Below are positions 920-56,510 of a stretch of 64,000 nt of DNA, piece after piece (within the stretch, counting starts at the first letter, position 1; every line of letters starts with the position of its first letter). The DNA comes from Eledone cirrhosa. Taxonomy: Eukaryota. The DNA lies in assembly GCA_964016885.1 (NCBI GenBank), contig OZ024740.1, forward strand, positions 171,182,001 through 171,246,000. Direction: 5' to 3'. Position numbers and translations under genes: made by a program. Below the pieces are notes generated by a model. The model saw only the letters and a list, made by a program, of their open reading frames with translations, had not been told where the DNA came from and made no database searches.

Positions 920-1088
920 ATAGAAATGGCTTCTACAGGACTAGAACTGTTTCATTCGGAAGAAATCATCAGGAAAGACCTTTCTTCCGAATGAAACAGC
1001 TCTAGTCCTGTAGAAGCCATTTATACTCTGCTATGTATTGAGTACCTTACATACTGTGGTTACTCCCGATTGAACCCGGGATAAACAT
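920..1088 (+). mobile_element. PLE-derived mini foldback, family A (inverted arm + direct arm + tail)
   Basis: 42-bp inverted arms 924-965/981-1022 (1 mismatch); CTGATGA on the minus strand in the loop; tail TATTGAGTACC...GGGATAAACA recurs at ~29928-29998 and ~38111-38220; (TA)n on both sides. Confidence 0.7.
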
Positions 1089-1326
1089 ATATATATATAT
1101 GTGTCTGTGTGTGTGTGCTTGTGTGTGTGTTTGTGTGTGTGTGTGTGTGCTTGTGTGTGTGTGTGTGTGTGTGTGTGTGTGTGTGTGTGTGTGTGTGTAT
1201 GTGTGTGTGTGTGTGTGTGTGTGTGTGTGTGTGTACATATGCAAAACGTAAACAGAAAAAAAAAGCAAACAACATAGAACGTTGAAGAGATATATTAGTT
1301 GAGCACTCAAAATAACAGGAAAAGAG

Positions 1327-1362
1327 TCTTGAGGTTTCGGACACTAGTCCTTCATCAGAAAA
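1327..1362 (-). ncRNA. Minimal type I hammerhead-like motif, family G (PLE pLTR type)
   Basis: Minus strand reads TTTT-CTGATGA-A-GGAC(TAGT)GTCC-GAAAC-CTC-AAGA; related copies at 49901-49936 (-), 50814-50846 (+, decayed), half copy ~54206-54220. Confidence 0.65.
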
Positions 1363-1590
1363 TAGAATTAAAAATAAAAGTTAACATAGAAAGATAAAGA
1401 GAAAGAAGGAACGGAGAAAAAATGAGAAATAAAACACTTATGTATTCATGTATATGCGCGCGTGTGTGTGTGTATGTGTATGTATTTATATATACATACA
1501 TATATCTATATATATATACGTATATATATATATATATATATACATACATATGTGTGTGTGTGTATATATATATATATATATATATATATA

Positions 1591-1692
1591 GTGGTGGAAC
1601 ACTGGAAGGTAATATCCGTAGTGGTAGAGCACTCAGTCCAAGGGACGAGTTAGGTAGAAGTGATTACACAACTGTTGTGTAACCACTTCTAC
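1591..1692 (-). mobile_element. Mini foldback insertion in (TA)n, family D
   Basis: 19-bp arms 1654-1672/1674-1692 (1 mismatch, 1-nt loop) plus ~63-nt tail with CTGAGTGCTCT on the minus strand; (TA)n both sides. Confidence 0.6.
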
Positions 1693-52098: not shown

Positions 52099-53810
52099 AG
52101 GAACCAGTAAGACTCCGACAGCTGAGCTCAAGCCGTTTCGACGGCTAATTCTGGACTAAATGAAAATTTATCCTGGTATTTAAATAGCCGATCTTCTCAA
52201 GGGGTAATTCCATATATGGTCAAAGTGATTGTCAAAAATCAGTAGTAATTCTGTGGTTGCAAATTAGTAGGGGAGATGGTGGCTAAACCTGCCAGTAGGA
52301 GAAAGAGGGGAGGGGGTGGAGTAGACCCAATCAAGCGTTGGTAGTGCCAGCTACAGCTGGGCATGAGGTCAAAGAAGATACAGGGGAGGGGGAGGGGGAG
52401 GAAGTCGGAACGGTAGGTAGAACAATGGGGGGTAGAAATAGGAAAGAAAAAAAAAAAAATACTGAGAGTGAAGAAAGGCAAATAAGTGTAAAGAAAAGTA
52501 AAGTAAATTAAATTCTACGACCTAGGTGTCAGGCTATTGTTAGGCGAGAATAAAATAAAGAAAGAAAGAAAGAAGTAAAAAAATAAATAAATGAATAAAT
52601 AAGGAAATAAGTAAGAGAACTAGGTGGGACGGATAAGGCAAGGACCCTTTTAAGAGGTATAAGTACGTAAATGATACGGTGACGGGTCAACAAAAGGGGC
52701 CAAAATACTAAAGAGACTACCACGAAATAAACAATAAAGGTTTCCATCCCGGGCCAGCAACGACCCAGTGCAGCAAAGTGAACTTGTACGAGATAATAAT
52801 TCTGAGTCCCGAGAAAAATATATACTAATGCTAACTCTAAAAGATCTAAAACAAGCTACATGAAAGTTCGTACGAAATAAAGGTAGAATACGGAGAAATA
52901 AATTCAGAATCCACCCCGCCCAGAAGAAAAGCGAAGCAAGAAATACTGAAACGAAAAAATAAGGCATGTGCCACTAAGAAATATAGAGGGCACAGAGAAT
53001 AGTGGGAGCGGTCGGAAAAAGGGGGAAAGTATCCGGGGTCTAAGCCAACTGCTATAAAGGGCGGAGTCCGCCAAATCTATCAAAGACTAGGGGAGGGGGG
53101 TGGGGGTACTAAGGCTACATGGGGCCAAAGGGCAGCCTCGGGTGGGCGAGAAAAGACGCCGACAAAGGAGAAGAGCTGGGGTAGAAGGACAAAGGGGAGA
53201 GGGGGGAAGGAAATAAAGGAAGCGATAAAAGAATACAAAGAAGATCTTACGTCTTCCTTGGCAAGCAGGGGTTACCTATTGCAAAATCAGCAACTGGGGT
53301 GTTATAGCCCTAGTCTGCCCCCCCCGGGTCATTATGGGGTTTGAGGGCGAGGTAAGTCCTACGCAATCTATGTTTACATGCAGTAACCAGTTCATCTTTC
53401 TTGTTTAGGAGTTGGTCCGTCGAAAACAGCATTTGTAAAGTTTCCTCCGAGCATAAATTGCACGGACGGCGTCCTCCCGTGTAAGAATTGGCTCTGGACA
53501 GTAATCTCCAAGTGAGATCATAGGTGATGTTGTTGTCCTTGAGGTCCCATATGTGGCCCGAAAGTGTAGTGGCGTGACGCCGGGCCGGGTTTCGGAAGGT
53601 ATGTCTATGTTGGTATAGCCGGGTCTTGAAGTCACATGCGGTAAGTCCTATATAGGCTTTGTTGGAGGTATCCGTCCTCACGTTGCACTGGTAGATCACA
53701 TTACGGTCTCTGCATCTATTGTCGAGTGGGCAAATAGATCTATCCGGGCAGTTACACCTCCTGGTCGGTTCTCCACTGCTAATTAGGTTATTTCTGCCAT
53801 CGGGGTTGAA
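52099..53810 (-). mobile_element. 5'-truncated Penelope-like element (probably Naiad type) with ~1.2-kb 3' UTR
   Basis: GIY-YIG ORF, long pyrimidine-rich UTR, terminal hammerhead variant at 52112-52205 homologous to family B; ends in (TA)n. Confidence 0.88.
53310..53810 (-). CDS. PLE GIY-YIG endonuclease domain (5'-truncated, open)
   Basis: CNC.....CPL...C, VIYQC, YIGLT..FKTR...H, LSGHIW, CNLCSEE, LLNKKDEL...CKH. Confidence 0.88.
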   Translation of the reverse strand, partial: FNPDGRNNLISSGEPTRRCNCPDRSICPLDNRCRDRNVIYQCNVRTDTSNKAYIGLTACDFKTRLYQHRHTFRNPARRHATTLSGHIWDLKDNNITYDLTWRLLSRANSYTGGRRPCNLCSEETLQMLFSTDQLLNKKDELVTACKHRLRRTYLALKPHNDPGGAD

Positions 53811-54979
53811 TTTTTTTAATACATCTAATTTATATAAACAAAATATAAAAATGTGATTTTATGTATAGCAATCATTTCAAACTGATTCTGCCTGCAATAA
53901 AATGTGATAGAGTATTTCAACAGATATGAGCGCTGCTTCCTATGAATTACCTCGTAAATATTTTATAAAATTCTCCATTACTTACACGTTTATGCTTGAA
54001 AGAGATGATTGGAACATTTTACTCGTCAATGTCTACGTGGTACTCTACAACAAGAAAAGAATTGTTATTATTGTTTAACCACATGTCTAACATGAATAAG
54101 CAGAGCTATGGTCAAAGGCGTATATATGCAAAAAGTAAAGGGAAACAGTAAAGCATACAACACAGTACAATGGAAAAAAGGTATTAGTTTAACGCTTGCT
54201 ATATAGTCCTTCATCAGAAGATAGAATAAGAAATAAAAGATTTTAAAGAAAAATACGTACGTATTCAGTCAGGCATTTTGGAGAAAAAAAAAAGTCGTCA
54301 CTCACAAGCCCATAGATTTTATCTTACGTTGATATTTACTACAAGTCTTGAAAGGTTATCTATTGGTCTTAATTGCTTACGCTGTTCTGTTAGGTACTTA
54401 TGGCCACAAAAGATGAACCAACTGATTGTCTGGCTATATATAATTCCTTTGTTTATAGGATATGTAAATATTTACCCTATTTACATATATTTTCTCCTTC
54501 AAATATTACGAAATGTCTCCCAAATGCTATGCACTTCTTATCAGTTATGTCAGATTGACCTCCAGTTGTGAGACTTATATCATTATACCCTACTTTGAAA
54601 CATCTGAGAGGATTCAATAGAAAACTTTGTTTATACGTCCGTTGTCTCTTAATATCATTCACCTACTTTGGACAATCAGCTTTGATTCATGAAAATCCAA
54701 GCTTTATTTAATATGGGTTGTATTTCCTTTCTAAATTATATTTTACTTTTGTTTTTATTAGATTTTATAGCCGTTTGTCATTGAGGATGTCAGCAGGATT
54801 TCGTCGATAAAGTATAATCTATAAACCCTGAGAGACGTAGAGAAAACAAACATTTAAGAGGCTCAATCAATCCCAATTGACAACTCAGATTTCATTTACT
54901 CAACTATCGGATATATATATGCTGATGAGGTTTGACGTAGCTCTTTTAGCTTTGTAATTGTTTTCAATGGTGTAGTTTT

Positions 54980-55400
54980 TATTGTTGTTGTTGTTGATGT
55001 TGTTGTTGTTGATGGTGGTGGTAGTGGTAGTGGTAGTGGTGGTGGTGGTGGTGTTGTTGTTGTTGTTGTTGGTGGTGGTGGTGGTGGTGGTGGTGGTGGT
55101 GGTGGTGTTATTGCTGTTGTTCTTTTTGTTATTGGGGTGGTGGCGGTAGTGTTATTGCTGTTGTTGTTGTTCTTGTTGTTGGTGGTGGTTGTGGTTGTGG
55201 TGTTAATGCTGGTGTTGTTGTTATTGTTATTGTTGTTGTGGTGGTGGTGGTAGTAGTTGTTGTTGTGGCGGTGGTATTATTGCTGTCGTTGTTGTTGTGG
55301 TTGTGGTAGTGGTAGTGGTGATGGCGGTCGTGCTATTGCTGTTGTTTCTGTTATTGTTATTGTTGTTCTTGTTCTTGTTGTTGTTCTTGATGTTCTTGTT
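54980..55400. repeat. (GTT)n/(GGT)n compound microsatellite
   Basis: Direct reading. Confidence 0.9.
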
Positions 55401-56110
55401 ACAAGCAGTTTTATTCTTAAGCTAATACTTTTTCCATATCGAAGAATCAGAGGGTCATTCTTAACACCGATATCAGTAGGGTTAAGTGGATTAAATATAA
55501 ATCCCCACCACCGTCCCTGTGGGTTAGGAATCCAGTCTGTCACTGAGGAATATATTTTTCCTCACCGGGAGAGGAAGTGAACTCAGAGCTCTATAACAAC
55601 AAAGTATTCGTCAATTTTGCAGTACGCCTGCTAACTGTAATGACTTATACCCATCTACAATATCTACTTAAAGATAACTGGGCTCTACCATTGACAGATA
55701 TTTCTCTTGGCCAGCACCAGCGAAAGTCTACCGATATTGTTTTATCTGGGAAAGAAACACAAACACCATATAACTTTCGCATTATCTTTATTGTTCGCTA
55801 TTCATCTGTTTATGAAATGCACAGGCACGAAACACAAAAAACACACCACAAAACAAAGACAAAATGGAATTGAAGTTTAAGACCAGGAGAAAGAGGAGGC
55901 ACAAAACAGATAATCCTTGAGGAGGTCACAGAATGTGTGACGCAAGAACTTTAATAAACAAATGAATAACGAATAACAAAGATAAAGTGAAAATTATATG
56001 GTCCGTGTGTTTCTTTCTATTGGCAATATTGGCAACACACACACACACACACACACACACACACACACACACACACACACACACACACACACACACACAT
56101 ATATATATAT

Positions 56111-56510
56111 AAGCAAAGGAATATTTAATTTGTTGGCAATTCAACAAATATATATATTTATAACAGATTCAAAGCACTCGACAAGTTTTCTGGAGTATAA
56201 TATCAATGATATTAATAAATGGAAACTATATTTATAAAACCATATTTATTCTATTATATATATTTCAAGAGTACCAAAACTTTGGTACGCTCTCATCAGA
56301 TAAGATACAAAGTTTGTTTTATAAATATTGACATATCCAGGTAAAACTTGAACCGTTAAGGTCTCATTCCTGGATATGTCAATATTTATAAAACAAACTT
56401 TGTATTTTATTTGATGAGAGCGTACCAAAGTTTTGGTACCCTTGAAATATATATAATAGAATAAATATGGTTTTATAAATATAGTTTCCATTTATTAATA
56501 CCATTGATAT
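56111..56510 (-). mobile_element. Mini foldback, family F copy 2
   Basis: ~143-bp arms 56200-56342/56368-56510 around a ~25-nt loop; hammerhead motif in both arms; tail on the left. Confidence 0.85.

Follow-up and report, generated by a model that had tools for sequence, protein, structure and literature searches.

Penelope-like elements (PLEs) carry a telomerase-related reverse transcriptase (RT). The Hydra clade of PLEs is defined by the endonuclease motifs CxCX5C, CxxC and CxH, together with (TA)n targeting and hammerheads (PMC8557442; this and the other publications on PLEs and retrozymes are cited for those parts of them that were accessible). Its published members also have a C-terminal GIY-YIG domain, inverted pseudo-long terminal repeats (pLTRs) and a one-sided tail, and the supplement of that paper lists a (TA)n-targeting Hydra PLE, Hydra-1_Obim, for an octopus. 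In Poseidon_Ac (Frangieh et al. 2024, PMC11167929), which belongs to another clade, both strands of an AT-rich target are cut and extended in vitro from two internal starts that bound the tail; the RNA is used uncleaved, and sequence 3' of the start is required (RNA to +172 is needed for a start at +111-118). For the Penelope elements of Adineta vaga (PMC3846280), inverted pLTRs, palindromic junctions and an optional tail at one inverted end are described and explained by self-priming. The current work concerns a stretch of 64,000 nucleotides from Eledone cirrhosa (assembly GCA_964016885.1, contig OZ024740.1, positions 171,182,001 to 171,246,000; hereafter the window), in which small fold-back insertions lie in (TA)n. 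Judged from their sequence, these are 5'-truncated PLE stubs, most likely of the Hydra clade. Such stubs are themselves an ordinary PLE product, and their layout, the (TA)n bias, the hammerheads and two-site initiation have been published already. The new point, which we consider probable, is that each of the two fixed ends of the stubs is followed within a few bases by a conserved bulged hairpin, which is likely to position the start of reverse transcription.

The original prediction described eleven sites with the order (TA)n, inverted arm, direct arm, unpaired tail, (TA)n. Local inverted repeats were detected by self-comparison of the masked window, and (TA)n flanks with one unpaired tail were found at ten of the eleven sites, all ten being fold-backs. 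These are the family A copy at 921..1087 (plus strand), with a hammerhead remnant in its direct arm and a 64-nt tail; family D at 1591..1691 (minus); family C at 5520..5735 (minus; 54-nt tail); family E at 22595..22852 (plus; 125-nt tail); three copies of family B at 37830..38021 (minus), 44871..45044 (plus) and 46279..46415 (plus), the last centred on the element's own GAGCTC palindrome; J, a fold-back of 35 bp at 38041..38075 (minus); and two copies of family F at 49305..49646 (plus), with a hammerhead (from 49454) in both arms, and 56111..56507 (minus). At the eleventh site, 37146..37245 (minus), an A-related tail accompanies an inverted arm remnant, with no overlap between the two. Aligned arms are 91-100% identical. 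Across the fold-backs the tails measure 54-125 nt, against 30-40 nt in published Hydra PLEs (PMC8557442). The tails of A and B are related (z 4.1, p<=0.004) and the other 27 of 28 family pairs show no significant tail similarity; the statement that the families are unrelated needs correction for this pair. Hammerhead cores occur in A and F and in three further families, G at 1270..1394 (minus), K at 27420..27620 (minus; an inverted pLTR with a tail) and H at 37485..37810, where a minus-strand tail (37633-37485) is joined to a non-overlapping plus-strand hammerhead arm (37634-37810). Only the 3' half of the hammerhead is present in B, and none was seen in the arms of D, C, E and J. In Rfam, the 150 of 205 window rows listed contained no match at gathering score and no hammerhead.

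The prediction placed a shared motif, GAGYRC, 19-27 nt into the tails. GAGTRC indeed lies past the arm end in the A copy at 920, the three B copies, D and both F copies, at a measured distance of 16-27 nt, and K has GAGTAC 25 nt into its tail. In J, GAGCGC adjoins (TA)n and the arm terminates within the loop. C and E tails carry no GAGYRC, as had been noted. G was counted among the motif families; it is not a fold-back, terminates in (CA)n, and has ACTC..GAGTGC without an inner stem, which makes it an uncertain member.

Taken alone, GAGYRC is not enriched in the window (60 occurrences vs 49.0±7.3 in shuffled sequence; 8 of 100 shuffles were as high). In A, B, D, F and J, an RCTC complementary to the GAGY strand is located 14-24 nt upstream of it, and the whole is a bulged hairpin of the form RCTC-stem-loop-YY-GAGY-RC, with an inner stem and a pyrimidine bulge of 1-2 nt; GAGYRC makes up its 3' strand. 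The proposal of a cross-family cis signal is supported, and the signal is the hairpin, of which GAGYRC forms one strand. The pattern RCTC-N8-20-GAGYRC appears 18 times in the window vs 3.1±1.8 expected (maximum 8 in 200 shuffles); two SINE copies account for four of these matches, and one is the reverse reading of F. When the stem was relaxed post hoc to any GC-rich stem of 3 bp, five of eight families had it, a result reached by 0/1000 tail shuffles and 1/1000 random window draws; with A excluded the count is four of seven (1/1000 and 5/1000, respectively). The two SINE (short interspersed element) copies, at 13709-13976 and 40512-40779, are probably tRNA-derived, and their ACTC..GAGTAC stem is internal, not at an insertion end.

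A coding sequence is tied to these insertions by one copy, at 52100..53822 (minus), a 5'-truncated Hydra-type PLE with an endonuclease open reading frame (ORF) remnant, a long 3' untranslated region and a B-like pLTR. The remnant (53367-53768) contains CxCX5C, CxxC and CxH and no RT, and the pLTR is tail-less and ends at the B arm end; ORF and pLTR are considered one insertion because no (TA)n break lies between them. All three endonuclease motifs and insertion in (TA)n are those of the Hydra clade. The hammerhead pLTR, the inverted 5'-truncated copy and the tail at one end are those of PLEs, which bears out the origin first proposed. No ORF was found in the window for A, C, D, E, F, H and J, so that a link to a Hydra ORF exists for the B-like copy alone; by their hammerhead form and hairpin, A, D and F are likely to be of the Hydra clade. 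K, whose RT remnant matches Hydra ORFs at best with E 0.25, may belong to another clade. Three other identities were rejected. Neptune and Naiad elements have a CX2-5CxxC linker and a CCHH motif, and the window endonuclease has CxCX5C; non-LTR retrozymes are tandem head-to-tail hammerhead repeats (bioRxiv 10.64898/2026.07.22.740005), and the window copies are single or inverted; miniature inverted-repeat or fold-back DNA transposons have terminal inverted repeats at both ends and a fixed interior, and here one end has an unpaired tail and the centres vary.

The window endonuclease ORF is 41% identical (E 3e-31) to an ORF outside this genome. Outside loci were fetched by endonuclease alignment, with no DNA motif, and comprise the best 80 of 192 metagenome loci and five genome-bin loci. 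RWK and DKT motifs are present in all ten long outside ORFs; the N-terminal RT region is missing from the window. A hammerhead follows the ORF within 700 nt in 61 of the 85 loci, and the hairpin pattern lies within 130 nt past the hammerhead in 23 of the 54 loci with enough sequence, vs 7 of 1136 control windows. A reverse-strand control (10/54) was not used, as the motif is in part a palindrome. In an alignment of 16 loci, in which each family is represented once or twice, the inner stem, which had not been selected for, covaries: 12 double-change cells were counted vs 0/500 shuffles, a figure that is not a p-value since the shuffle ignores relatedness, and slid controls were at most 55% paired. 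Once window copies are added, 28 of the 35 rows have G-C as the outer pair and 5 have A-U, and the remaining 2 are unpaired there. Six published Hydra consensi, inspected by eye in the accessible files, show the canonical hairpin in three cases and variants in two, and one stops before the hairpin. The hairpin extends well beyond the genome of the window. Rfam gave 0 matches in seven outside loci, a search with a longer protein found nothing, and there was no relative among viral contigs. In many Hydra elements, hammerhead stem III reads ACTC-N-GAGT (L008:548-600, L011:1685-1730 and the accessible part of file S2 of PMC8557442), which are the letters of the outer stem of the window-type hairpin; this is either coincidence or an old duplication. 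The Naiad_Mmer consensus in the accessible supplement of the same paper has a single bulged hairpin of similar kind, some 500 nt upstream of its 3' end; not being at an end, it was treated as possible chance.

In the outside loci, the covariance model detects a second hairpin 61-83 nt past the first at ten places, and at nine of these the ATG of the ORF follows hairpin 2 by 42-51 nt. The full pLTR order is hammerhead, site 1, hairpin 1, site 2, hairpin 2, ATG. Forty-six hammerhead-like cores have no following hairpin; 21 of them have no family reference, two are cut by a contig end, and 23 are informative, with families assigned from upstream sequence alone. In 21 of the 23 informative rows, or 18 of 20 distinct insertions, the tail-less end falls at -6..0 from hairpin 1; L024 and L084 are the exceptions. 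Tailed rows were counted only when they scored >=98 to a double-hairpin reference (n=13), and 11 of these 13 same-family rows end at -3/-4 from hairpin 2. Head-to-head insertions combine a tailed with a tail-less end, as in L003, L073, L074 and L076, and the two arms can carry different element lengths. Among published consensi, by eye in the accessible files, Hydra-1_Ajap begins with both hairpins and Hydra-2_Amil and Hydra-2_Ajap terminate in hairpin 1. Since tail-less ends lie at hairpin 1 and tailed ends at hairpin 2, the tail is the interval between two hairpin-marked sites. In Hydra-type elements the hairpin is duplicated and marks both ends. The tailed end is unlikely to be the RNA end for which it was taken; in four outside families it is a second internal site, 3-4 nt before hairpin 2. 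The insertion end follows the stem base and not GAGYRC (standard deviation 1.1 nt from the stem base vs 4.9 nt from GAG at ten outside family sites, two values being by eye); the end predicted as fixed is indeed so in B (37908), and the reference point is the stem rather than the motif. The window presents hairpin 1 only, and we infer hairpin 2 of its families from their relatives. Full-length open Hydra ORFs (699-720 aa) with an upstream double hairpin are available at L006:528-2648, L030:956-3115, L037:431-2542 and L044:161-2257, and 2631 relatives at E<=1e-20 were counted among 8000 scored. In L006 and L008 a (TA)n run lies at site 2, between the two hairpins and within the pLTR; the element therefore carries its own target.

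A covariance model trained on the outside loci alone was applied to the window and gave nine matches at E<0.1, eight of which are tails of A, B or F. They are the three B hairpins, at 37902-37879 (E 1.8e-5), 44973-44996 (1.8e-5) and 46344-46367 (6.2e-5); three of A type, at 1025..1043 (plus; ACTC..GAGT, 2 nt past the arm end; 0.006), at 37207-37188 in the eleventh site (0.037) and at 38159-38177 in a solo A copy at 38112..38214 (plus; 0.09); and two of F, at 49561-49581 and 56196-56176 (both 0.047). The ninth, at 20339-20377 (E 1.4e-4), follows a decayed hammerhead-like sequence recognised by eye (the whole at 20270..20377, plus) and is additional to the sites originally listed. The same model misses D, G, H, K, C and E in the window, and J has only E 2.4. 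In J the hairpin is GCTC..GAGC. A second model, with window copies in its training set, adds D (E 0.34; hairpin 1650-1631, with a 1-nt bulge, 3 nt past the arm end) and a decayed A copy at 29928, part of a solo A tail with a mutated motif at 29918..29992 (plus; E 0.15), and still gives no match for C, E, G, H and K. No hairpin was found in C; E has GCTC 4 nt past the arm end with a degenerate partner strand; K has GAGTAC without an RCTC partner; and H has ACTC..GAGT with a long loop 8 nt past the arm end, a tentative pairing that is missing from the minimum-free-energy fold.

Most likely, the Hydra-clade hairpin is an RT-positioning signal, each copy setting RT initiation for one break end. 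The element protein would cut both (TA)n strands, and each 3' end would prime cDNA synthesis on element RNA that is still uncleaved, at a point directly 5' of a bound hairpin; base pairing over 1-3 nt with a local A/U patch may help. Both cDNAs would terminate early and be joined at their far ends. The tail would then consist of hairpin 1 plus spacer, and hairpin 2 would never be copied at the insertion end. In a bolder form of the idea, to which we give an even chance, the two tandem bulged RNA hairpins of Hydra PLEs would act as rulers, each loading an RT at a fixed start, and the two break ends would be copied from two defined sites.

Several results weigh against RT positioning by the hairpins. 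C, E, K and G are without a match in either model, and the rule is not valid for all fold-backs; D and H escape the outside-trained model. The outer stem is invariant in the 16 loci, and in that training set it was selected by pattern. Overall, the tails are not unusually stable folds (z +1.5 to -2.1), and G.U vs A.C counts of 8 vs 5 leave the folding strand undecided. J, L024 and L052 break the rule, the latter two being tail-to-tail; L084, whose family score is borderline, has its end at -26; L046/L047, which are one insertion, end at +6 by the aligner and at about -3 by eye; and the 21 cores without a family reference were left unscored. In the Poseidon template, by eye in its printed form, there is no such RCTC/GAGY hairpin, and the Poseidon starts are reported to lack homology to the target (PMC11167929).

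Among other explanations, an unlikely one is that the hairpins direct a nuclease, of the host or of the element, to cut the RNA 3-6 nt upstream, and that the two resulting RNA 3' ends are used in end-primed target-primed reverse transcription. It predicts the same genomic pattern for all the end mapping described above, and read ends in Anolis RNA-seq coincide with start sites (PMC11167929). However, according to the same paper the Poseidon protein in vitro initiates at internal positions of uncut RNA and depends on sequence 3' of its start, and cutting would strip the sole conserved recognition element from the template. Run-off from ribozyme-cleaved RNA was rejected, as the arm ends do not coincide with the hammerhead cleavage site.

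It is improbable that the hairpin acts in DNA, with the endonuclease recognising it when it is part of a longer cDNA or other intermediate and trimming the insertion beside it. Such trimming would leave the same genomic pattern, the wobble counts allow either strand, PMC8557442 proposes that the tail arises from endonuclease-mediated resolution, and the Drosophila tail is required for endonuclease recognition (as cited in PMC11167929). It requires, however, that an over-long cDNA is made first and is trimmed at both ends, while the in vitro starts of Poseidon match genomic ends directly (PMC11167929).

Quite improbable is a role for (TA)n primer pairing with an A/U patch alone in setting the ends, with the hairpins serving, for example, translation. 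At most ends the element sequence is AT or TA, and hairpin 2 sits 42-51 nt before the ATG. In six references, however, 72 AT/TA steps were counted between hammerhead and hairpin, and only 22 of them are within 8 nt of the stem. The ends cluster in that interval (18 of 20 distinct ends), which the patch alone cannot explain; the D end, moreover, has no AT/TA.

Four read runs were aligned to 37485-37969, which covers B and H. In B, loose (TA)n ends at 37908, 5 nt from the stem, were present in 650 and 727 raw reads and in 29 contigs, and reads of two 2026 runs contain strand-change joints with varied centres (37880-37964); the foldback hairpins of the prediction are thus found in raw data. Read depth over the tail is about twice that of the arm or more, and the arm sequence differs among subfamilies. 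H has loose ends at 37487 and 37633, and its reads show the tail joined to a non-overlapping arm. As a point against the hairpin scheme, the read table gives the best loose ends, with 608 weaker rows beyond, and the B tail end is masked. Apparent molecule ends at 37628, 37702 and 37784 lie on AATT, were likely restriction sites, and were set aside.

Self-priming, in which a single cDNA folds back and copies itself into the inverted arm, is very improbable. It was argued from palindromes in PMC3846280, and palindromes occur at some centres here (46279). The tail-less arm, however, often holds sequence absent from the tailed arm (177 nt in H; hundreds of nt in L003, L073 and L076), which rules out simple fold-back copying in those cases. 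The arm at 37146 has zero overlap with its tail, and some read joints cut the direct arm inside the tail. Non-overlapping arms support the earlier claim that each end of a (TA)n break receives separately made cDNA. The chance that the fold-backs are assembly or library artefacts is negligible: fold-backs beside microsatellites are a familiar artefact class, but here substitutions and gaps distinguish the two arms, the same fixed ends and tails are seen in several copies, and for B and H this explanation is refuted by raw reads of other samples that show the structures.

Positioning by paired hairpins has partial parallels elsewhere. In LINE-1 twin priming both break ends prime cDNA and a 5' inversion results, with a variable second site and little overlap; the window sites differ in being fixed by structure, with arms that overlap almost fully. 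The 3' stem-loops of stringent LINEs (long interspersed elements) and SINEs, hepadnavirus epsilon and the template-flanking elements of telomerase are RT-bound stem-loops that set where copying starts or stops. Unlike these, the PLE hairpin is duplicated, is located 3' of each start, and one of its copies is absent from the insertion end. Poseidon_Ac shares cutting and extension of both strands, two internal starts, the AT-rich target and use of uncleaved RNA, and differs in that its starts lie in the ORF, its stem-loop is AC-rich, and the accessible text reports no cis element mapped for each site (PMC11167929). The accessible text of the Hydra-clade paper mentions no end hairpin, and the window copies differ from its elements in being minimal stubs (PMC8557442). 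In Adineta vaga (PMC3846280) the inverted arrangement is similar; the non-overlapping arms of the window favour two primings over self-priming. The remark that no description in cephalopods was known needs correction, as the layout and two-site initiation have been published (PMC3846280, PMC8557442, PMC11167929) and an octopus Hydra element is listed. For the hairpin or its duplication, no description was found in the literature or Rfam, subscription papers and Repbase notes being outside the search. The choice of PLE start sites and the one-sided tail are questions for which the 2021 and 2024 papers ask for a mechanism. A short covarying hairpin near both ends offers a precise target for mutation, true element boundaries for annotation, and a way to study the placement of a telomerase-related RT on its RNA. 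If the ruler scheme is true, it would explain the PLE tail and show, within the sister group of telomerase, a template whose positioning is defined by structure.

Other features of the window touch on these families. At 27420-28905, a three-part PLE insertion combines a minus-strand pLTR with tail (K), a plus-strand RT remnant and a 300-bp fold-back (28235-28534); the pLTR and the non-Hydra-like RT may derive from different elements. A copy at 23827-23936 stops at the start point of the K tail. A short B-like fold-back at 38762-39060 has GAGTAC about 30 nt from its (TA)n end and no RCTC partner. Family G occurs at 1270, 49857, 50781 and 54204 with minimal hammerheads and a variable motif, and at least two copies terminate in (CA)n, not (TA)n. 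Another hammerhead-bearing PLE end, flanked by (TA)n runs and without the hairpin, is located at 26030-26365 (minus), and an inverted-repeat element at 55750-56030 has a short stretch in common with family C. At 5773-7025 there is an element with terminal inverted repeats and an open transposase-like frame of 321 codons (5903-6868, minus), which we take to be Tc1/mariner-like. A SINE-like family of about 190 bp is very abundant in the window and often tandem, as at 7172-7391, 8585-8790, 11128-11526, 20958-21574, 62002-63474 and other places.

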